Shown: positions 8,893 to 58,787, counted from the stretch's first letter. The stretch: DNA of 61,724 bases from Candidatus Magasanikiibacteriota bacterium (GCA_014729395.1 WJJZ01000004.1:1-61724), one strand, 5' to 3'. Program-made: numbers and translations. Notes: a model not told the origin generated them from the letters alone.

Positions 8893-8913
8893 TTTTCTGG
8901 TATAATAAACACA

Positions 8914-8978
8914 ATCATAAATCATAAATCCTAATTCATAAAATATAAATTTATGATTTTAGACTTTAGATTTTAGAC
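8914..8978. repeat. tandem heptamer arrays (ATCATAA-type x5, TTTAGAC-type x3)
   Basis: In 7-nt register: ATCATAA ATCATAA ATCCTAA TTCATAA AATATAA (8914-8948), then TTTAGAC TTTAGAT TTTAGAC (8958-8978). AATCATAAAT and ATTTATGATT can pair. Confidence 0.8.
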
Positions 8979-8986
8979 TTATTTTT

Positions 8987-9148
8987 ATGTCCGACAATTT
9001 TATTCGTCATCTCATTTCGTTTATTGGTACATTGATTGTTTTGTTGGCCTATTTTTCCGGTTATATATCAGGAAGTAATGGCTGGTGGTGGACAGCAATC
9101 GGTATGTTGATTTTTTATGTCATAGTTTTTAAGCTGGTTGAAGCTTAA
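8987..9148 (+). CDS. small two-helix membrane protein (53 aa), absent from the ORF track
   Basis: I translated ATG 8987 to TAA 9146-9148 by hand: MSDNFIRHLISFIGTLIVLLAYFSGYISGSNGWWWTAIGMLIFYVIVFKLVEA. It has two hydrophobic helices and ends 9 nt before the next gene. Confidence 0.5.
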   Translation: MSDNFIRHLISFIGTLIVLLAYFSGYISGSNGWWWTAIGMLIFYVIVFKLVEA

Positions 9149-13902: not shown

Positions 13903-15270
13903 ATGCCTAGAAAAAAAAGTACAACTAAAAAGAAGTCAGCTGCAAAAAAGAAAAAAACAGCTGCAAAAAAGAAAGCAGTTAAAACTGCTAAAACAAAGAA
14001 GAAATCTTCCGGCAGAAAAAAAAGAAAACCAACAAAAAGAAAAAAAACTGCCAAGAGAAAAACTTCAAAGAAAACTGCCCGCAAGTCATCAAAACGGGCA
14101 AAGAGAACAACAAAAAAGAAAAAAACCAGAAAAACAACACGCAAAAAAAAGACCAGCAAAGTAAAGGAAGAAATAGTAGAGCCTTCCGATGCTCAAGTAA
14201 GAGATTTAATAAAAAAAGGAAGACAAAGAGGCTTTATTACGGAAGTGGAAGTTTTGCAAGTTTTTCCAAAAGTTGAATACTACATATATATTTATGAGGG
14301 TTTTTTGGATTTGGCTGCAAAAAATAATGTTGCGGTTGTGCAAATGAAGGAAGGACTCTTGGGACAAGGTGAAGAAAAGAATGATATATTAGCGGATTTG
14401 CAAGGTAAACAACCTGATATGGAAGGATCTTTTGATTTGGGTTCCATATCAGAGGATTCAATTCAAATGTACTTGCGTGAAATTGGTAAAATCCCATTAT
14501 TAACGGCCGAAGAAGAAGTTATTCTGGCCAAAGGTAAAGAAAGAGGCGATAGGAAGTCGGAAAGAAAGATGATTTTGGCTAATTTGCGACTTGTGGTTTC
14601 CATTGCAAAGAAGTTTGTCGGTAAACAGCTTTCACTACTTGATTTAATTCAAGAGGGTAACATTGGTCTATTTAGAGCGGTAAAAAAGTTTGATTATCGT
14701 AAGGGCTATAAATTTTCCACATATGCAACTTGGTGGATCAGGCAAGCTATTACCAGAGCATTGGCTGATCAATCCAGGACAATTAGAATTCCGGTTCATA
14801 TGGTTGAGACGATAAATCGTTTCAATCAGAGACAAAGAGCGTTGTTGCAAGACTTGGGAAGAGACCCTACACCGGAGGAAATGGCAGCCGAATTGGGAGA
14901 AGATTTAGACAAGGTAAAACAGATAATAAAAATATCACAAGATACTATTTCTCTTGAGACATCAGTGGGTGACGATGACGATGATTCGGCATTGGCGGAT
15001 TTTATAGAAGATGTAAAAAATGTCAGCCCATCACATTCAGCCGGAGTATCACTTTTAAAGGATTATATTGCCGATGCAATCAAAGATCTGTCACCCAGAG
15101 AGCAGAAAATTTTGGAGATGCGTTTTGGTCTAACCGATGGTGTTACGCATACTTTGGAAGAGGTTGGAAAAGAATTTGATGTTACTCGTGAGCGTATCAG
15201 ACAGATTGAAGCCAAATCTTTAGAAAAAATTCAGACGTACGACATTATCAGCAAATTAAGAGATTATTAG
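13903..15270 (+). CDS. rpoD: RNA polymerase sigma-70 family factor with Lys-rich N-terminal tail
   Basis: Region 2-4 motifs '[39 protein letters not shown]', 'IRIPVHM' and '[20 protein letters not shown]'. Residues 2-87 are almost only K/R/T/A/S. Confidence 0.93.
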
Positions 15271-25688: not shown

Positions 25689-25765
25689 TTCTCTCACATT
25701 TTAAAGAAATCCCTATTTATAGGGGTTTCTTGATTTTTAAGAAGGTTTTAGGGATAATACAGTGA

Positions 25766-25836
25766 ATTGGAGACTGGAGATTAGTGACTGGAGACTATTT
25801 GACTATAAAATCAATCTCTAGTCTCCAATCACCAGT
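25766..25836. repeat. inverted heptamer array (ATTGGAG/ACTGGAG vs CTCCAAT/CACCAGT), probable terminator
   Basis: ATTGGAG ACTGGAG ATTAGTG ACTGGAG (25766-25793) and CTCTAGT CTCCAAT CACCAGT (25816-25836), followed by TTTTTATTTTTT. Confidence 0.8.
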
Positions 25837-25869
25837 TTTTATTTTTTATCTAAATATTCTACTGTTCTT

Positions 25870-26991
25870 ATGAAGAATAGCAAAGAAAGAGTTCTAGTTG
25901 CCATGTCCGGCGGGGTGGATTCATCCGTGGCGGCTTTACTATTGAAAAAAGAAGGTTATGATGTGGCTGGAGCATTCATGATAAACTACGAAGAAGAGAG
26001 TGGGAGTTCGTTTACAGGGAGCAGCGTAGCGGAGTCATGTTGGCGCGGGGATTACCGGGACGCTATTCGGGTGGCAGCTAAACTGGAAATTCCACTTATA
26101 AAATTGGACTTTAGAAAAGAATACAAGAAGTTTGTTTTGGATTATATGTTTTCTGAATATAAAACCGGTAGAACGCCAAATCCGGATGTTTTGTGTAATA
26201 AATTTATTAAATTCGGTGCGTGGTTGAAGAAGGCGAGGAAGCTCGGCTTCGAGAAGTTGGCCACTGGACATTATGCACAGCTTCGAAAAAGTAAGACTGG
26301 AGATTGGAGACTGGAGACTGGGAAAGATAAAGAAAAAGACCAGACTTATTTTTTGCACCAGTTAAATCAGGAGCAGTTAAGTCATGCTCTATTTCCAATT
26401 GGTGAATATACCAAAAAAGAAGTTAGAAATTTGGCTAAAAAATTCAATCTTGCAACAGCAGAAAAAGAAGAAAGTATGGGGATTTGTTTTGTGGGTGAAG
26501 TGCCGATGAAAGATTTTTTGATGCAGGAAATTAAATCAAAGCCTGGAAAGATTGTAACTTCAGATGCTGAGGTGATAGGTGAACATGAGGGATTAGCTTT
26601 TTATACTGTTGGCCAGCGCCATATAGGAGTTCACAGTTCACAGCCAACAGTTCACAGTCGGCAAGCGATAAATGACAGTAGACCTTTGTATGTCGTTGAT
26701 AAAAGGTTGGATACTAATGAACTCGTTGTTGGTTTTAAAGATGATCCTTTGTTATTTAAGCAAAAAATTGAAGTTAGTGAAGTAAACTGGATCGCTGGAC
26801 AGCCACCCAAATTTCCCCTAAAATGTAAAGTAAGACTTAGACATAGACAAACTCCTCAAAGAGCGGTGATCAGTGAGCGGGGAACAAAAATTTTGATAGA
26901 ATTTAAAAATGCACAACGAGCGGTAACCCCCGGGCAGTTTGCGGTTTTTTATAAAGGAGATGAATGTTTGGGGGGTGGAGTGATTTTGTAA
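25870..26991 (+). CDS. mnmA: tRNA 2-thiouridine(34) synthase MnmA
   Basis: PP-loop 'VAMSGGVDSSVAA', plus 'PNPDVLCN', 'ATGHYA', 'KDQTYFL' and 'ESMGICF'. Confidence 0.95.
   Translation: MKNSKERVLVAMSGGVDSSVAALLLKKEGYDVAGAFMINYEEESGSSFTGSSVAESCWRGDYRDAIRVAAKLEIPLIKLDFRKEYKKFVLDYMFSEYKTGRTPNPDVLCNKFIKFGAWLKKARKLGFEKLATGHYAQLRKSKTGDWRLETGKDKEKDQTYFLHQLNQEQLSHALFPIGEYTKKEVRNLAKKFNLATAEKEESMGICFVGEVPMKDFLMQEIKSKPGKIVTSDAEVIGEHEGLAFYTVGQRHIGVHSSQPTVHSRQAINDSRPLYVVDKRLDTNELVVGFKDDPLLFKQKIEVSEVNWIAGQPPKFPLKCKVRLRHRQTPQRAVISERGTKILIEFKNAQRAVTPGQFAVFYKGDECLGGGVIL
26296..26323. repeat. ACTGGAG-family heptamer array (4 units) inside mnmA
   Basis: ACTGGAG ATTGGAG ACTGGAG ACTGGGA, translated in frame as part of 'KTGDWRLETGK'. 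Confidence 0.85.
26630..26657. repeat. TTCACAG-family heptamer array (4 units) inside mnmA
   Basis: TTCACAG TTCACAG CCAACAG TTCACAG, translated in frame as part of 'VHSSQPTVHS'. Confidence 0.85.
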
Positions 26992-40428: not shown

Positions 40429-41930
40429 GTCTGCATATTGGTAGACCTTTTTTTTATTCTATTGAATATTCTATACAGAGTTGTCACAAGTTTTTCAAAA
40501 ATATTTGCGGGTTTGAGAGCAAGAGATAATATTAATACAATAAAAATAATTCCAAAGGTGTGAAATAGAGCCGGTGTAGTTATGTTTATTACGAGCATAG
40601 CGATAATTGCAGCCAAAGAACCGACATAAAAATCATGCCAATCACTTACAAATTTAATTTTATTTATTATTCTTGTTGTGGAAAAAATGTAGATTGCTAA
40701 TAAAATTATTGACCCAATGACACCTAGTTCGGCTAGCATTTCCAAGTAACCCCAGTCATATTGGCCGGTGGTTGTGTAATCGTTGCTGTTAGGGTTTAGA
40801 TATGTAAAGCTTGAGCCAAGTCCATTTCCCAGCATTGGGTTTTCACTAATTTGTTCCAATATACTTGGTAATATTATCATGCGAGTGGCCGAGCTCGTTT
40901 CTATTTTAGGACTGGCAAGGCTGGCCAATCTTACGCCAAATAATTCCCAGCCCAATGTTTTTCCGTTACTGGAAACTATTGAAAAACTTGTAAAAATTAA
41001 AACCACGAGACCAATGGTTGTACACGAAACAATAAACCACCTTGAAGCAATATGTTTGTATTTTAAAATTAACAATCCGACAAAAAGTGCCAGTAAAAAA
41101 GACCTTGATAAATTTAATACCAAAATAATAATAGATAAAAATAGTAAAATCCTCCACATTTTGTGATGGTGTTCATCACGCATTAAAAGGGATGAAATGA
41201 TCAATATTATTGGAGCAATCAATAAATGTTCGGGAAGGACAATCCTGAAAAAACCATTACCCATGTTTGTAATTTTGCCGTTTGCCGCATCTCTGAACCA
41301 TTTGTAAAAAGGTTCTTGCAACTCAACCATTCCGCTGGAAAACATGATAAAAGTAAAAATCGAAAAAAGCGCTGATCCGATAATAAATACAATTATCAAT
41401 CTTATGAAATATTCATAATTGTTTTTTTTGTTTAACAAGTGATAAGTTGGAAATACTAATGGCAGGTAAAGATATGGAATCAAATCTTGAATAATATGTT
41501 TATAATTATTTCCATTAATTATACCGTTTATACTGGCAAACATTAAAAATAAATAGAGAATAATTAAAATTATCGTAAAATATTTGTTAATTAAAAAACG
41601 CTTTCTGAACTCACGCTTCCAAATTATATGATTTGTCCACAAAAATAAAAAAATACTAATTAAAAGTGTCCTTATGGAGAGGCCTGCAAATTCCAAATAG
41701 TTACCCGAACCTCCTAAAAAAATTTCTCCAATTAAGATAAAAAAAGCCCAATCAGGGTTTTTAAAATATACAATCCCAAAAAACATTAGTAAGCTAAAAA
41801 CCAGAATTCCTTGTATAATCAAATGATTGTGAAAAGAAAACGAAACAAATCTTATTGTAAAAAAAACCAGTAGTAAAAATAAGGTTTGCCAGTTTAGAAA
41901 GATGGATTTAGTTGTGAGACGGTTAAGCAT
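40425..41930 (-). CDS. O-antigen ligase/polymerase (Wzy_C-like) membrane protein
   Basis: 501 aa, polytopic. 'LNLSRSFLLALFVGLLIL' is followed by a large loop, as expected for the family. Confidence 0.75.
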   Translation of the reverse strand: MLNRLTTKSIFLNWQTLFLLLVFFTIRFVSFSFHNHLIIQGILVFSLLMFFGIVYFKNPDWAFFILIGEIFLGGSGNYLEFAGLSIRTLLISIFLFLWTNHIIWKREFRKRFLINKYFTIILIILYLFLMFASINGIINGNNYKHIIQDLIPYLYLPLVFPTYHLLNKKNNYEYFIRLIIVFIIGSALFSIFTFIMFSSGMVELQEPFYKWFRDAANGKITNMGNGFFRIVLPEHLLIAPIILIISSLLMRDEHHHKMWRILLFLSIIILVLNLSRSFLLALFVGLLILKYKHIASRWFIVSCTTIGLVVLIFTSFSIVSSNGKTLGWELFGVRLASLASPKIETSSATRMIILPSILEQISENPMLGNGLGSSFTYLNPNSNDYTTTGQYDWGYLEMLAELGVIGSIILLAIYIFSTTRIINKIKFVSDWHDFYVGSLAAIIAMLVINITTPALFHTFGIIFIVLILSLALKPANIFEKLVTTLYRIFNRIKKRSTNMQT

Positions 41931-41944
41931 GAATTTTAAATTTA

Positions 41945-42020
41945 AAATTTTGAATTTCGAATCAATTTTAAATTTATTAATTAAAAAATTAACAATTCAA
42001 TCAAAATTTAAAATTCGAAA
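41945..42020. repeat. AT-rich inverted-repeat element, copy 1 (shares both arms with 58043-58177)
   Basis: AAATTTTGAATTT (41945-41957) and AATTCAATCAAAATT (41994-42008) recur identically at 58056-58068 and 58142-58156. Confidence 0.7.
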
Positions 42021-42023
42021 TTA

Positions 42024-42950
42024 TTAATTTAAAATGTTGCTGGCAATTTTTTGATAACCACGCAAAAATCCTTCGACATCCATAGCTTTTTTACCTTCAA
42101 GTTGAAGTTTTAGCACCTCAATTGCGTTTTTCGCACATCCTATATACATTTTACCATTTTCTAGCACCACCTTGCCAGCTTCTATTTGTAGATCAACCGG
42201 TTTGATTTTTATCAACTTCAATCGCTTATTCTTCCAGCTTGTCCAAATACCGGGCCAAGGATTTAGACCACGGTATCGGTTATAAATATCAGTAGCCGAT
42301 TTTGTCCAGTCAATTTTGCCATCATCTCTGGTAAACTGGCCGCAAGTGGAGGCTTGTAAATTATCTTGTGGAATGGGCTCTAATTCACCGCTTATATACT
42401 TTGGGATAGCCTCCAGCAAAGCTATTTTGCCGATCTCAGCCAGTTTTTTGTCTAAATCAATATAAGTGTCATGTTCACCTATTTTGATTGGTTTTTGTAG
42501 GATTATCGGTCCGGTATCAAGCCCCTCATCCATTTTCATAATAGTAACTCCGGTTTCAGTTTCGCCATTTATCAAAGCTGATTGGATAGGGGAGGCGCCA
42601 CGGTATTTTGGTAGTAGTGAAGTGTGGACGTTTAAAAATCCGTGAGGTGAATCATCTAATAGTTTTTTCGGAATAATTATTCCATATTGAGCTACTATAG
42701 CGATGTGGTAGTCAGATATTGGTAGCTGGTAAATTCTTAATGATGCGGGTTGAATTATTGGGAGATCGTATTTTTCAGCCAAAATTTTTACAGGAGATTT
42801 TTTTAGTTCTTTTTTGCGTCCTACGGGTTTGTCCGGCTGGGTGATTACCAGCTCAACTGTAATAAAAGGACTGCTGATAAGTCCTTCGAGTATAGTGGCA
42901 GCGAATTCATGCGTGCCGAAGAAAATAGCCCTAATTTTTCTATCATTCAT
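42024..42950 (-). CDS. fmt: methionyl-tRNA formyltransferase
   Basis: 'IFFGT.EFA...L..L', 'HGFLNVHTSLLPKYRGASPIQ.A...G...TGVTIM.M...LDTG'. I trimmed the start to ATG 42950 because the track ORF extends through the heptamer array. Confidence 0.93.
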   Translation of the reverse strand: MNDRKIRAIFFGTHEFAATILEGLISSPFITVELVITQPDKPVGRKKELKKSPVKILAEKYDLPIIQPASLRIYQLPISDYHIAIVAQYGIIIPKKLLDDSPHGFLNVHTSLLPKYRGASPIQSALINGETETGVTIMKMDEGLDTGPIILQKPIKIGEHDTYIDLDKKLAEIGKIALLEAIPKYISGELEPIPQDNLQASTCGQFTRDDGKIDWTKSATDIYNRYRGLNPWPGIWTSWKNKRLKLIKIKPVDLQIEAGKVVLENGKMYIGCAKNAIEVLKLQLEGKKAMDVEGFLRGYQKIASNILN

Positions 42951-42952
42951 AA

Positions 42953-43026
42953 AGTAGATGATAAGTGATAAGTGATAAGTGATAGCTTTTCTTAGTAAAA
43001 CTATCACTTATCATCTATCATTTATT
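42953..43026. repeat. inverted heptamer array (GATAAGT x4 vs ACTTATC/ATCTATC) between def and fmt
   Basis: GATAAGT GATAAGT GATAAGT GATAGCT (42960-42987), 18-nt loop, then ACTTATC ATCTATC ATTTATT (43006-43026). Confidence 0.85.
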
Positions 43027-43082
43027 ATTTAAAATATCTCCAAAATCAATTTTTTTATCTCGTCTCCTGGGTCAGACACTTA

Positions 43083-49388: not shown

Positions 49389-50105
49389 ATGAAAGGTATA
49401 ATTCTTTCACATACGAGAATGGGTGCAACCAACTCCGGTTTTTGCACCAACATTCTAGTTGAAGATGGTAATGGAAATCCTATTCAAATAAGGCCCAGAT
49501 CTCTTCCGAACAATAATCTGTTTATTTGCTCATTTGGAATGAATGAAAATCAGATGATGAAGAAGTGGCGGCCTGGCTGTTGGGTGAGACTTCCCAAATT
49601 CAAGTACGTTGTTGGGGAATATCGAAGACCAACACATCCTGAAGATGTAATTTTGGATCACTATGAGGGAGTGGAGGTTGATTTTGAAAAAATAGTGAAG
49701 AAATCATCCTACATTGAATTAATAGAACCTTTTTGCTATAGGGGGATTGATGAACTGTTTCCTGATGTCAGGATTAAGCGGGGTTCTTTTAATAAATGGT
49801 ATGTACCGGGGGGTCTAAATTTAAATCATTCGGTTGGCTATATCTACTCTAAAGAGGTAAAAATATATGTAGATTTTGATAAGTTTCGAGCTAGAATAAC
49901 CGATGAGAATGGCAATATTATCAATGGGCCTCTCAAAGATGAACATTTGCTAAGAAAACTGAAAAAAAAGAAAGAAAAAATCCAACAGAAATCATTGATA
50001 TATAAAAACAAATTGTTAAGGCTGTCTCTCGCAAACCCTTGGAACGAGGGAAATAGAATGGGTGAGTCTCGTTGTTTTGTGATGGTGAGTCATATTGTTA
50101 AGTGA
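49389..50105 (+). CDS. hypothetical protein, translationally coupled to the DUF488 gene
   Basis: 238 aa. AAGGAG sits inside the upstream gene's last codons, 3 nt separate its stop from this start, and the ORF ends in TGA. I have only a weak recollection of a similar 'dual-OB' family ('..IRP...', 'LRLSLANPW....CFVMVSHI'). Confidence 0.6.
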   Translation: MKGIILSHTRMGATNSGFCTNILVEDGNGNPIQIRPRSLPNNNLFICSFGMNENQMMKKWRPGCWVRLPKFKYVVGEYRRPTHPEDVILDHYEGVEVDFEKIVKKSSYIELIEPFCYRGIDELFPDVRIKRGSFNKWYVPGGLNLNHSVGYIYSKEVKIYVDFDKFRARITDENGNIINGPLKDEHLLRKLKKKKEKIQQKSLIYKNKLLRLSLANPWNEGNRMGESRCFVMVSHIVK

Positions 50106-50189: not shown

Positions 50190-50894
50190 ATGAAAAAAGG
50201 AAAATTATATATTGTTGCTACGCCAATCGGAAATTTGGACGACATCACAATTCGTGCCATAGACACAATGAAAAGTGTTGATTTTGTAGCTTGCGAAGAT
50301 ACCAGAGTAACCAGAAAAATTTTGAATCATTACAAAATAGAAACACCAACGATTAGTTACCATCAACATAGCGGTGAGTCAAAGATGTTGGAAATTAGAG
50401 ATTTGTTGCTTTCCGGCAAAAATATCGCATTAGTAACGGATGCCGGTACTCCCGGAATTAGTGATCCGGGGAATAAGTTAATCGAGTTCATAGTTCATAG
50501 TTCACAGTTCTCAGACATTGTTCCTGTTCCGGGAGCTTCGGCAGTTACGGCAGCTTTGTCAGTATCAGGATTTCCTACAGACAAGTTTGTATTTATGGGG
50601 TTCCCGCCACATAAAAAAAGAAGAAAACAATTTTTTCAAGAAATTGCAGACAATAAATACACAACGGTTTTTTACGAATCATCGCATAGAATAAAAAAAG
50701 CTCTGCAAAATTTGGCAGAGGTGTTGGTTGAGGAAAGACAGTCCGCCTCCGCTAAAGCTTCGGCGAGACAAGTGTGTGTATGTCGTGAACTTACAAAAAA
50801 ATTTGAGAGCATTTACAGGGGTTCTGTGTCCGAGGTTGTAGGTATGGATATTACAGAAAAAGGGGAGTTCGTAGTTATAGTACGTAGTCAATAA
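50190..50894 (+). CDS. rsmI: 16S rRNA (cytidine1402-2'-O)-methyltransferase
   Basis: 'LYIVATPIGNL.DIT.RA......VD.VACEDTR.T..IL', 'DAGTPGISDPG', 'PGASA'. Confidence 0.9.
   Translation: MKKGKLYIVATPIGNLDDITIRAIDTMKSVDFVACEDTRVTRKILNHYKIETPTISYHQHSGESKMLEIRDLLLSGKNIALVTDAGTPGISDPGNKLIEFIVHSSQFSDIVPVPGASAVTAALSVSGFPTDKFVFMGFPPHKKRRKQFFQEIADNKYTTVFYESSHRIKKALQNLAEVLVEERQSASAKASARQVCVCRELTKKFESIYRGSVSEVVGMDITEKGEFVVIVRSQ
50487..50514. repeat. TTCACAG-family heptamer array (4 units) inside rsmI
   Basis: TTCATAG TTCATAG TTCACAG TTCTCAG, translated in frame as 'FIVHSSQFS'. Confidence 0.85.
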
Positions 50895-56812: not shown

Positions 56813-57601
56813 ATGGCGAGTGAAATTCACATTCCGACTTTGGCACCAGAGGTTCTGTTTCAAATAGGACCGGTGAATGTTACCAACACAATGATAAACG
56901 CATGGATTGCGATAATAATATTTCTTATTTTGGGGATTTTTATAAAAAAAAGAATAAATTTAAGCCCGGGTAAACTACAGAACTATTCTGAATATTTTTT
57001 GGATAAGTTATTGGGTTATTTTGACCAGGTTACGGGAGATCGTAAAAAAACAATTGGCTTTTTACCGATTGTCGGATCGATCTTCTTTTTTATTTTATTA
57101 TCAAATTGGCTTGGTCTGTTGCCGGGCACCGGGAGTATAATGGTAGGACACAGTATGTTGCTTAGACCGGCCAACACAGATTTGAACCTTACGGTTGCTA
57201 TGGCACTGGTTGCGGTTGTTAGTTCACATATATTTGGTTTTGTTGCGATCGGTTTTTTTACTCATCTGGGAAAATTTATTCAAATAGGCAATATTTTAAA
57301 GAGTTTCAAAAAAGGCCCAATGGCTATTTTTACAGCTATAATAGAATTTGGTGTTGGTTTACTGGAAATAATTTCTGAAATTGCCAAAGTCTTATCACTG
57401 TCTTTACGTCTGTTTGGGAATATATTTGCCGGTGAAGTATTGATTTCAGTAATAAGCGCTCTTGTTGCAGCTCTTGCACCAGCTCCATTTATGCTTTTGG
57501 AAGTTTTGGTCGGTATTATCCAGGCCAGTGTGTTTGCAATGCTTACATTGGTTTATTTAACGGTTGCTACGAGTAAACCGCATGGGGCGGAAGAACATTA
57601 A
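56813..57601 (+). CDS. atpB: F0 ATP synthase subunit a
   Basis: 'LSLSLRLFGNIFAGEVL' (conserved Arg helix), polytopic. Confidence 0.93.
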   Translation: MASEIHIPTLAPEVLFQIGPVNVTNTMINAWIAIIIFLILGIFIKKRINLSPGKLQNYSEYFLDKLLGYFDQVTGDRKKTIGFLPIVGSIFFFILLSNWLGLLPGTGSIMVGHSMLLRPANTDLNLTVAMALVAVVSSHIFGFVAIGFFTHLGKFIQIGNILKSFKKGPMAIFTAIIEFGVGLLEIISEIAKVLSLSLRLFGNIFAGEVLISVISALVAALAPAPFMLLEVLVGIIQASVFAMLTLVYLTVATSKPHGAEEH

Positions 57602-57674
57602 CAACAGTTCACAGTGATCAGTTCACAGTTAGCAGGATTATATCCTCTGTTGGTTGTGAACTGAAAACTGCGAA
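57601..57674. repeat. inverted heptamer array (TTCACAG family) between atpB and atpE
   Basis: ACAACAG TTCACAG TGATCAG TTCACAG TTAGCAG (57601-57635), 11-nt loop, then CTGTTGG TTGTGAA CTGAAAA CTGCGAA (57647-57674). It begins on the last base of the atpB TAA. Confidence 0.85.
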
Positions 57675-57687
57675 TGGACATTATTAA

Positions 57688-57987
<300 letters not shown>

Positions 57988-58042
57988 GTTGATCAAAGAA
58001 GGGCAATGAAAAAATATTGTCCTTCCTGATGAGTTTATCTTT

Positions 58043-58177
58043 AATTTTGGATTTCAAATTTTGAATTTTGAGTAAATTTCAAATGATTTAATTTTAAACT
58101 TGTCCTGAAAGTTTTGAATGATTAATTCATTAGTAATTAAAAATTCAATCAAAATTCATAATTCAAAATTCATAATT
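58043..58177. repeat. AT-rich inverted heptamer element, copy 2 (AATTTTG vs CAAAATT/CATAATT)
   Basis: AATTTTG GATTTCA AATTTTG AATTTTG (58043-58070) and CAAAATT CATAATT CAAAATT CATAATT (58150-58177). Confidence 0.75.
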
Positions 58178-58190
58178 AAATTATAATAAT

Positions 58191-58787
58191 ATGCCAGAAA
58201 ATACTGAACATACAAGTGAAGTACTTCATGAAGACCAGGTAGTTACTGAAACTCATGAAGAAGTTAGTCATTCTACCGCCGGCGATGATAGTGTTTTGGC
58301 TTCATTGGGTATAAATGGTCAGTTATTTGCTTTTCAGTTGCTAAACTTTGCCATTGTAGCGGCAATTTTATGGTTTTTGATATTGAAACCACTGACTAAG
58401 AAAATGGAAGAACGTAAAAAAATGATTGATGACAGTATTGAAAATACTCAAAAAGTGGAGACAAAGTTGCAGATGAGCGAGCAAAAATATCAAGAAAAAA
58501 TTGATGAAGCTAAAATGGAAGCAAATAAGGTAATTGAAAAAGCTCAAAAAGAAGCAGAAAGCTTGAAAGCAGATATGAGAGAAAAAGCCAAGAAAGAAAT
58601 AGAAACCTTAATTAACCAGGCAAAGCGAAATATCCAAATAGAAAAAGAAGACATGGTAGAAGAGTTGAAAAAAGAAACCGCTGATTTAATAGCGGTAGCT
58701 GTTGAAAAAATTATTGATCAAAAGTTGGATGCGAAAAAAGACCGTGAGTTGATAGAAAAATCAATCAGTGATTTACAAACTAAATAA
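58191..58787 (+). CDS. atpF: F0 ATP synthase subunit b with acidic N-terminal extension
   Basis: TM helix 'FQLLNFAIVAAILWFLILKPL', then a long charged helix. Confidence 0.88.
   Translation: MPENTEHTSEVLHEDQVVTETHEEVSHSTAGDDSVLASLGINGQLFAFQLLNFAIVAAILWFLILKPLTKKMEERKKMIDDSIENTQKVETKLQMSEQKYQEKIDEAKMEANKVIEKAQKEAESLKADMREKAKKEIETLINQAKRNIQIEKEDMVEELKKETADLIAVAVEKIIDQKLDAKKDRELIEKSISDLQTK

Follow-up and report, generated by a model that had tools for sequence, protein, structure and literature searches.

Why does a conserved rRNA methyltransferase contain a segment written in a tandemly repeated DNA word, and why does an unrelated enzyme share its peptide? We addressed this question for the rsmI gene in a 62-kb stretch of DNA (35% GC; hereafter the window, from whose first letter positions are counted) of a Candidatus Magasanikiibacteriota bacterium. 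The closest matches of RsmI and of the neighbouring genes are metagenome-assembled genomes (MAGs) of Candidatus Magasanikbacteria, a lineage of the Candidate Phyla Radiation (CPR)/Patescibacteria. The explanation we favour, with a little better than even confidence, is that the array in rsmI is an old, translated heptanucleotide microsatellite, produced by slippage and homogenisation and having no function of its own. The relevant parts of the gene are as follows.

50190..50894, + strand: rsmI, for the 16S rRNA C1402 2'-O-methyltransferase, an uninterrupted open reading frame (ORF) of 234 residues enclosing the array.
50487..50514, + strand: four-unit heptanucleotide array TTCATAG TTCATAG TTCACAG TTCTCAG, encoding F100-S108 plus base 1 of D109.
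50501..50507, + strand: unit 3 of the array, with the in-frame TAG position of the word; CAG here, GAG or AAT in relatives.
50742..50771, + strand: separate in-frame insert in rsmI, 30 nt, 60% GC (SASAKASARQ), at the other permissive site of RsmI.

The array is real and lies in frame within an intact ORF, as the original prediction had claimed; its units were read directly at 50487-50493 (TTCATAG), 50494-50500 (TTCATAG), 50501-50507 (TTCACAG) and 50508-50514 (TTCTCAG), and the translation across them runs ...LIEFIVHSSQFSDIVPVPGASA. Tandem Repeats Finder called the array at 50485-50510, with period 7, 3.7 copies and 94% matches. The identity of the enzyme is clear: the ORF matches Pfam PF00590 (TP_methylase) over residues 5-216 of 234 (E 1.2e-32), RsmI entries of the PDB match it with E values of 1e-43 to 1e-52 (4e-43 for 5hw4/9pzg; phmmer), and it aligns end to end with the solved RsmI structures 3kwp, 5hw4 and 9pzg and with orthologues. 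The motifs DAGTPxISDPG and PxPGxSA are invariant in an alignment of 120 sequences. The earlier comparison with Escherichia coli RsmI at the aligned position was also correct when checked against the alignment of PDB homologues.

The pentapeptide VHSSQ is shared with MnmA, whose ORF occupies 25870..26991 and contains two heptamer arrays.

26629..26658, + strand: TTCACAG-family array GTTCACA GTTCACA GCCAACA GTTCACA G, encoding VHSSQPTVHS.
26294..26321, + strand: second array, AGACTGG AGATTGG AGACTGG AGACTGG, in frame; many CPR MnmA orthologues carry arrays here.

In RsmI the pentapeptide comprises residues 102-106 and is encoded by GTTCATAGTTCACAG (50493-50507); in MnmA it comprises residues 254-258 and is encoded by GTTCACAGTTCACAG (26629-26643), the whole array translating as GVHSSQPTVHSRQ. 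The two coding segments are identical at 14 of 15 nucleotides. The same word family read in the same frame is the sole reason why RsmI and MnmA share VHSSQ, in agreement with the earlier claim. Compared with its nearest orthologue, MnmA has a loop extended by about 11 residues, within which VHSSQPTVHS lies. A metagenome scan for MnmA returned distant relatives only (best 58% identity, most below 50%); the mnmA arrays could therefore not be dated, and their comparison shows recurrence at sites rather than history.

For RsmI the history is more accessible. The nearest RsmI among 5.8 billion proteins is 72% identical (BLASTP), so that there is no close strain for comparison. Several orthologues at 67-70% identity carry the same peptide, as (F/S)(I/V)VHSSEF or FIVNSS, and a four-unit array is present at the identical codon in at least six other lineages (L081/82, L083, L084/85, L169, L170 and L174-176). 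The units read as follows.

Window: unit 1 TTCATAG, unit 2 TTCATAG, unit 3 TTCACAG, unit 4 TTCTCAG.
L081: unit 1 TTCGTAG, unit 2 TTCATAG, unit 3 TTCTGAG, unit 4 TTCATAG.
L083: unit 1 TCCATAG, unit 2 TTCATAG, unit 3 TTCGGAG, unit 4 TTCATAG.
L084: unit 1 TCAATAG, unit 2 TTCATAG, unit 3 TTCTGAG, unit 4 TTTATAG.
L169: unit 1 TTTATAG, unit 2 TTAATAG, unit 3 TTCGGAG, unit 4 TTAATAG.
L170: unit 1 TTTATAG, unit 2 TCAATAG, unit 3 TTCGAAT, unit 4 CCAATAG.
L174-176: unit 1 TTCATAG, unit 2 TTCATAG, unit 3 TTCGGAG, unit 4 TTCAGAG.

The recent replacement implied by the original prediction is thus contradicted, since a four-unit array common to RsmI proteins that are only 67-70% identical means that IVHSS was inherited; only the Q of VHSSQ (CAG, unit 3) is particular to this genome, and the ancestral word is TTCATAG, not TTCACAG. 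The possibility raised at the same time, that orthologues without any repeat carry the same residues, does not hold in its strict form: all orthologues with VHSS whose DNA was examined carry the repeat, and those without it mostly show other residues at this position. Outside the array, third-position identity between array-bearing lineages is 0.39-0.48, with 0.63-0.67 for the three closest pairs (L081/L084/L169). A perfect TTCATAG tract brings an in-frame TAG within three units, whatever the frame, and the codon in unit 3 is CAG, GAG or AAT and never TAG in all seven array-bearing lineages, which indicates that the ORF has been selected to stay open. The spacing from the DPG to the PG motif is 57 nt both in the array-bearing and in most array-free Magasanikbacteria orthologues, and therefore the rsmI array is not an insertion; relative to RsmI of E. 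coli or L. brevis, the segment in the window has two extra codons. Our phylogeny was a rough neighbour-joining tree, too poorly resolved for counting independent origins, and accordingly lineages are reported here, not events.

The array is conserved at synonymous sites. Among six array-bearing lineages, third-position identity averaged 0.48 over the gene (standard deviation 0.10) and reached 0.68 in the array, placing it 9th of 239 sliding windows. L174-176 belong to a species of 51% GC, with a third-position GC content (GC3) of 0.57 in rsmI and 0.60 across 14 genes of the locus, and they retain TTC ATA GTT CAT AGT TCG in the array; given the peptide IVHS and the codon usage of L174, the joint probability of ATA GTT CAT AGT is 0.0018. 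Between the window and L174, 8 of 10 third positions are identical in the array compared with 0.39 elsewhere, at similar amino-acid identities (0.70 in the array, 0.68 elsewhere). The array codons were kept across a shift in GC content, suggesting that something beyond peptide selection and codon bias holds the sequence. One possible process follows from the reading of the repeat, in which each position of the 7-nt word serves as codon positions 1, 2 and 3 in successive units; if the units are homogenised, a synonymous position in one of them could be pinned by non-synonymous constraint in its neighbours. The reading we prefer is that such homogenisation, together with selection on the protein, may freeze the synonymous positions of the array.

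These data also bear on whether the periodicity is a by-product of selection for a peptide, I-V-x-S-S being common at this position, combined with chance and with no process at the DNA level. Array-free Magasanikbacteria orthologues do have similar residues (e.g., QIVNFSQ, QIVSFSK and LVHSAP), and IVNSS written in AT-rich codons already gives two near-identical heptamers. The periodic units are four, however, not two, ATA GTT CAT AGT was retained at a locus-wide GC3 of 0.60 despite its low joint probability, several unrelated words build arrays at the same site, and the genome-wide excess of period 7 described below takes in non-coding DNA too. We therefore regard this explanation as very unlikely.

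To judge whether the array is compatible with the fold, an AlphaFold2 model of RsmI was built on 120 sequences. Its mean predicted local distance difference test score (pLDDT) was 88, with values of 81-86 over residues 91-110 (the blocks of the array), and Foldseek superposed it on 3kwp, 5hw4 and 9pzg with template modelling (TM) scores of 0.81-0.87. In the model the array forms the last turn of helix 93-102, the loop 103-108 and the first residue of strand 109-113. The two-domain fold is thus predicted to be intact despite the array, and the concern voiced in the original prediction about fold compatibility is eased by a model that is confident over the array and superposes on solved structures. 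Its statement that the array overlies native RsmI structure without lengthening a loop agrees both with this placement and with the 57-nt spacing. The site is best read as a permissive surface site of RsmI. The SASAKASARQ insert, not present in close orthologues or PDB homologues, scored lower, with a pLDDT of 52 for block 181-190, into which residues one to six of its ten fall.

The positions at which arrays occur are few. When 84 rsmI orthologues were scanned for strong period-7 windows (at least 15/21 matches), all of these windows fell at one of two sites, apart from a low-complexity match in a gene from outside CPR and a run of N.

Site A, window RsmI residues ~101-104: end of a helix and the following loop, flanked by the DPG and P(I/V)PG motifs; nine genes and four words, TTCATAG, GATTTAG/GATTTAA, CATAWAA and ATAATYA.
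Site B, window RsmI residues ~182-183: loop ahead of the CxCRELTK strand, where RsmI of the window has its SASAKASARQ insert; four genes with heptamer arrays, L035, L051, L055 and L062.

Further arrays at site A are TAACACG x4 in L171 and the 8-nt words CAATGGST in L167 and ATTAACTA in L172, and the close relatives L166 and L173 have none there. By peptide signature, TTCATAG-type and GATTTAA-type segments each account for about one sixth of the 120 closest RsmI proteins, the DNA behind these counts having been checked only for the named loci. A similar recurrence was seen in MnmA, where other CPR lineages have, at the site of the AGACTGG array, ATGTCAA x4.5, AATTCAA x4-5, a GC-rich hairpin followed by four heptamers, or a long palindrome; in CPR orthologues, arrays also cluster a second time close to the C-terminus of MnmA. 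At one or two permissive sites of a protein, arrays thus appear repeatedly in different words while its length stays unchanged, which suggests that a repeat process at the DNA level dictates part of the protein sequence.

We also saw insertions of other kinds at these sites. In mnmA of L109, L114, L117 and L142 (~26290 in window coordinates), the insert is an in-frame composite of a GC-rich hairpin (e.g., CCCGCCTTGGGCGGG) and then four heptamers, AAATTCC, AAATTCG or AATTTTC, and L094 and L106 have long palindromes at the site aligned to window ~26290. Long GC-rich inserts of 20-50 residues occupy rsmI site A in other CPR lineages (L002, L006, L024, L040 and L048); several encode ...DSSTSLRSA(R/Q)ND-like peptides, suggesting a different, dispersed GC-rich insertion element.

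Period 7 itself is strongly over-represented. With a strict rule of four copies and at most 15% mismatches, the 62-kb window contains five arrays of period 7 and none of period 6 or of any period from 8 to 14, and 30 dinucleotide shuffles of the window gave no strict period-7 array. In a larger sample made up of the window and 170 fetched loci, nearly all from CPR (1.13 Mb), there were 48 period-7 arrays versus 0-6 for each of periods 5, 6 and 8-11; 45 of the 48 were 28-41 nt long and 29 lay within long ORFs. At least six unrelated heptamer words occur within the window alone. Heptamer arrays thus genuinely and specifically characterise this genome as well as CPR DNA generally, and our literature search for heptamer repeats in CPR/Patescibacteria found no report of them. 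A word-sharing statistic for the Magasanikbacteria arrays (53 pairs within one mismatch versus a null mean of 15 and maximum of 41) was not used as evidence for word families because it was driven largely by AT-rich low-complexity words.

Slippage of such an array was captured once. L174, L175 and L176 are three assemblies of one array-bearing species, 99.9% identical, and 17 kb aligned between L174 and L175 (99.89% identical) contain a sole indel, which amounts to a single 7-nt unit of an AGCCAAT array at the atpF stop / atpH start (L174 14491-14526, L175 12842-12870, L176 8898-8926). The indel overlaps the atpF stop and changes the atpF-atpH spacer from 12 to 5 nt. Slippage of heptamer arrays in this group is thereby shown directly. 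At the rsmI array no change in unit number was found among the eight members of a 90% cluster, in all of which (seven full length) the array peptide is invariant while other residues vary.

Slippage of a unit that is not a multiple of three could in principle make the array a phase-variation (contingency) switch, in which gain or loss of 7 nt toggles RsmI, and the window array does contain 18 nt of perfect period-7 sequence in a group whose heptamer arrays slip. Exactly four imperfect units are kept in 7/7 lineages, however, the array peptide does not vary in the cluster, and RsmI is a housekeeping rRNA methyltransferase rather than a product of a surface or restriction gene; we consider such a switch extremely unlikely. 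A candidate frameshift at the array was also rejected. In P0124/P0125 (cluster of P0089) rsmI is split into ORFs of 96 and 151 residues by a frameshift near residue 86, and this lone break lies ~25 residues upstream of the array and is unrelated to it; either an error of sequencing or a naturally occurring null allele could explain the split.

Taken with the slippage polymorphism, the evidence leads us to the following account of the array as an old microsatellite. The Magasanikbacteria lineage, like CPR DNA at large, would generate short tandem arrays, strongly favouring a unit of 7 nt, and homogenise them; replication slippage together with short-patch misaligned copying between adjacent units is the likely process. 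Arrays in coding sequence would persist only where the protein tolerates nearly any sequence of fixed length. TTCATAG x4 would have arisen at site A in the ancestor of the subclade and would since have been read as (F/S)(I/V)V(H/N)SS..., selection having presumably taken out the in-frame TAG of unit 3. The data demonstrate the layout of the array, its conservation, the period bias, the confinement to particular sites, the slippage polymorphism and the intact predicted fold; that slippage and homogenisation acted at rsmI itself, and that the array lacks a function of its own, are inferences.

Several observations weigh against this account. For an array to form at constant length, either paired +7/-7 events, which pass through frameshifted intermediates, or a conversion-type process would be required, and neither was observed at rsmI. 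A functional nucleotide element would give equal conservation at synonymous sites. Whether the TTCATAG array had a single or a repeated origin is not firmly settled by the rough tree. Array size clusters sharply at 4-5 units, unlike in an open-ended microsatellite. Moreover, whole arrays resemble one another across loci: the mnmA AGACTGG array is identical at 24/26 positions to a hairpin arm at 25770-25796, 500 nt upstream, with the variant unit AGATT in both, the mnmA TTCACAG array is identical at 23/26 positions to an arm of the hairpin downstream of atpB and at 26/31 to the rsmI array, and the AGTTC(A/G)xAG word family recurs at non-orthologous loci in L167. Independent local slippage predicts neither kind of likeness, which calls for copying between loci or for a sequence-specific factor. 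In total, three loci of the TTCACAG family and two of the TGGAGAC family lie within 62 kb, with 23-26 of 26-31 nt identical, and mnmA 26286-26321 is also 29/35 like the reverse complement of the 3' arm and T-run of the upstream hairpin. L167, whose rsmI lacks the TTCATAG array, has TTCAGAG TTCATAG at the rsmI stop codon and, ~700 nt downstream of rsmI on the opposite strand and at the contig end, AGTTCGGAG x3 plus AGTTCATAG.

The hairpins concerned are the following.

57596-57680: hairpin between atpB and atpE, -32 kcal/mol, folding z score -5.1; TTCACAG-family 5' arm at 57604..57635, + strand.
25755-25860: hairpin and T-run upstream of mnmA, -30 kcal/mol, z -4.6; TGGAGAC 5' arm at 25768..25796, + strand.
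42945-43045: hairpin between def and fmt, z -5.8, with arms made of heptad arrays (array 42955-43031).

None of the three intragenic arrays folds (z -0.6, +0.2 and +0.8), the first value being that of the rsmI array, which has no RNA structure of its own. A 17-nt inverted repeat around the rsmI array (50441-50457 / 50527-50543) was rejected as a conserved stem; orthologues pair at 9-13 of the 17 positions with G-U allowed, and the complementarity arises from Pro-Gly codons. Scans of the window with Rfam and for tRNAs gave no matches. The arms of the orthologous atpB-atpE hairpin are built of TTCACAG in the window, of the 8-nt CACCTWAC in L174 and of non-periodic sequence in L084, so that this hairpin parallels rsmI site A in keeping position and shape while the periodic word is replaced.

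The likeness between loci could mean that the arrays are copy-and-paste cassettes of ~28-35 nt, miniature mobile or ectopically templated, that enter permissive sites and slip only secondarily, loosely like REP/REPIN elements, the small dispersed repeats of cyanobacteria or Rickettsia palindromic elements. In keeping with this, the mnmA-internal arrays match hairpin arms down to their variant units (the 29/35 match including a flanking A-run), unit size is uniform, intergenic arrays are inverted pairs in strong hairpins (z -4.6 to -5.8), composites of a GC hairpin and four heptamers are inserted at one MnmA site in several CPR lineages, and an array stands at the contig end in L167. The rsmI array, on the other hand, adds no length and was inherited vertically over deep divergence, words vary between loci, the DNA examined showed no transposase, no target duplication and no identical family in high copy, and the sole polymorphism observed was a simple one-unit slip. 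Cassettes are thus an improbable source of the arrays in our estimation.

A functional cis-element, with at least four contiguous heptads in coding sequence read by a heptad-binding factor on DNA or mRNA, would also account for synonymous sites conserved across a large GC shift, for word families common to different loci and genomes, and for the tight size of 4-5 units. There is a precedent in the ribbon-helix-helix (RHH) protein omega (ParB) of pSM19035, which binds contiguous 5'-WATCACW-3' heptads and needs at least four for full activity (PMC9499535), and, on its complementary strand, the array at 42955-43031 reads TATCACT, which matches WATCACW exactly. For the rsmI word, in contrast, the best rotation (GTTCATA) matches WATCACW at only 4-5 of 7 positions. 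Site A in other lineages holds GATTTAR, CATAWAA, ATAATYA, TAACACG or 8-nt arrays, or nothing (L166 and L173), which argues that no particular word is required there, and the six or more unrelated words in the window point the same way. No RHH protein was found among the 15 of ~55 window ORFs that were scanned, a scan not aimed at binders. Homogenisation and three-frame reading also account for the synonymous conservation without any function. We think it unlikely that the array is such an element. The last two ideas may be combined, the 4-5 unit heptad arrays forming a sequence-specific system rather than mutational debris, in which word families such as AGTTC(A/G)xAG would be copied between loci as ~28-nt cassettes and kept at the nucleotide level, even within housekeeping coding sequence, for a putative heptad-reading RHH or RNA-binding factor. 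This we likewise hold to be improbable; if true, RsmI and MnmA would share a cis-code and not merely a peptide.

Repeats of this period are known elsewhere in bacteria. Heptanucleotide simple sequence repeats (SSRs) include the short tandemly repeated repetitive (STRR) sequences of heterocystous cyanobacteria, GGGAATC of Xanthomonas and GGGGAYT of Nostoc (PMC4692102, citing Mrazek 2007 and the Calothrix STRR report). The excess of heptameric repeats in bacteria has long been noted but seldom studied in detail, and neither a mechanism nor a role has won acceptance, polymerase slippage having been proposed as their origin (PMC4692102). The arrays described here resemble these SSRs in their head-to-tail 7-nt units, in the specific over-representation of period 7, in length variation between close relatives, seen here at the AGCCAAT array, and in frequent inverted hairpin pairs (PMC4692102). 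The known SSRs are described as mainly intergenic, often long, and built of one or a few words per genome (PMC4692102), whereas the CPR arrays are short (4-5 units), use many words and lie in many cases in frame in housekeeping genes, and the rsmI array has been kept at one codon position over deep divergence. What is new relative to known heptameric bacterial SSRs is that the rsmI array is coding, lies at a site where arrays recur, is conserved at synonymous sites and occurs in CPR.

Also known are the TAACTGA repeats of Beggiatoaceae, cyanobacteria and Bacteroidetes, heptamers in 2-6 copies that occasionally lie in ORFs and whose forward word, like TTCATAG, holds stop codons that restrict where it can be translated; an action at the mRNA level has been proposed for them (PMC4679880). 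They consist of a single word, found mostly just upstream of start codons, with the ORF cases at protein termini (PMC4679880), whereas our words are diverse and the rsmI array stands in the middle of a conserved enzyme with its stop-creating unit edited. The omega/ParB heptads are similar in being contiguous 7-bp units, direct or inverted, and the minimum of four for full activity matches the 4-5 units seen here; they are found in promoter regions of a plasmid, and their cognate protein is known (PMC9499535). The rsmI word is off their consensus, and other lineages hold unrelated words at the same site.

With Rickettsia palindromic elements (RPE), conserved proteins likewise accommodate short repeated DNA in frame at their surface. 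REPINs are inverted doublets of repetitive extragenic palindromic (REP) sequences that form hairpins downstream of genes (PMC3116915), and intergenic arrays of the window also form hairpins as inverted pairs. RPE and REP/REPIN elements are palindromic, add length and form high-copy families, unlike the rsmI array, whose units are direct tandem copies and which leaves the length unchanged, is unfolded (z -0.6) and is vertically inherited. SSR contingency loci (e.g., in Haemophilus) share with rsmI a unit within an ORF that is not a multiple of three, but their tracts are perfect, longer, strain-variable and located in surface or restriction genes (PMC2651432), in contrast to an imperfect tract fixed at four units in a housekeeping gene.

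CPR/Patescibacteria are rich in heptamer arrays, a substantial fraction of which is translated within core enzymes, where part of the protein would be dictated by a repeat process rather than by selection on its residues. An array that is still recognisable at synonymous sites over deep divergence offers a natural system for measuring concerted evolution under three-frame reading. In practice, array segments yield spurious shared peptides in unrelated proteins, which can mislead alignment and homology inference, and they flag frameshift-prone spots in MAG annotation.

Other repeats were also seen. Shortly upstream of rsmI, two tandem copies of a 22-23 nt unit (GGTGAGTCTCGTTGTTTTGTGA / GGTGAGTCATATTGTTAAGTGA, 77% identical) at 50061-50105 lie at the 3' end of a DuOB-domain ORF (49389..50105). 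In L174, five tandem CCCTAAA units lie at the end of atpH (14906-14944; also in L175 and L176); that CCCTAAA is complementary to TTTAGGG, the telomere repeat of the plant type, is presumably coincidental. Further intergenic period-7 arrays of the window lie at 8905-8990 (AATCATA / TTTAGAC), which folds weakly (z -1.8), at 41925-42040 (AATTTAA-type) and at 58030-58195, where AATTTTG is accompanied by its complement CAAAATT ~100 nt away.

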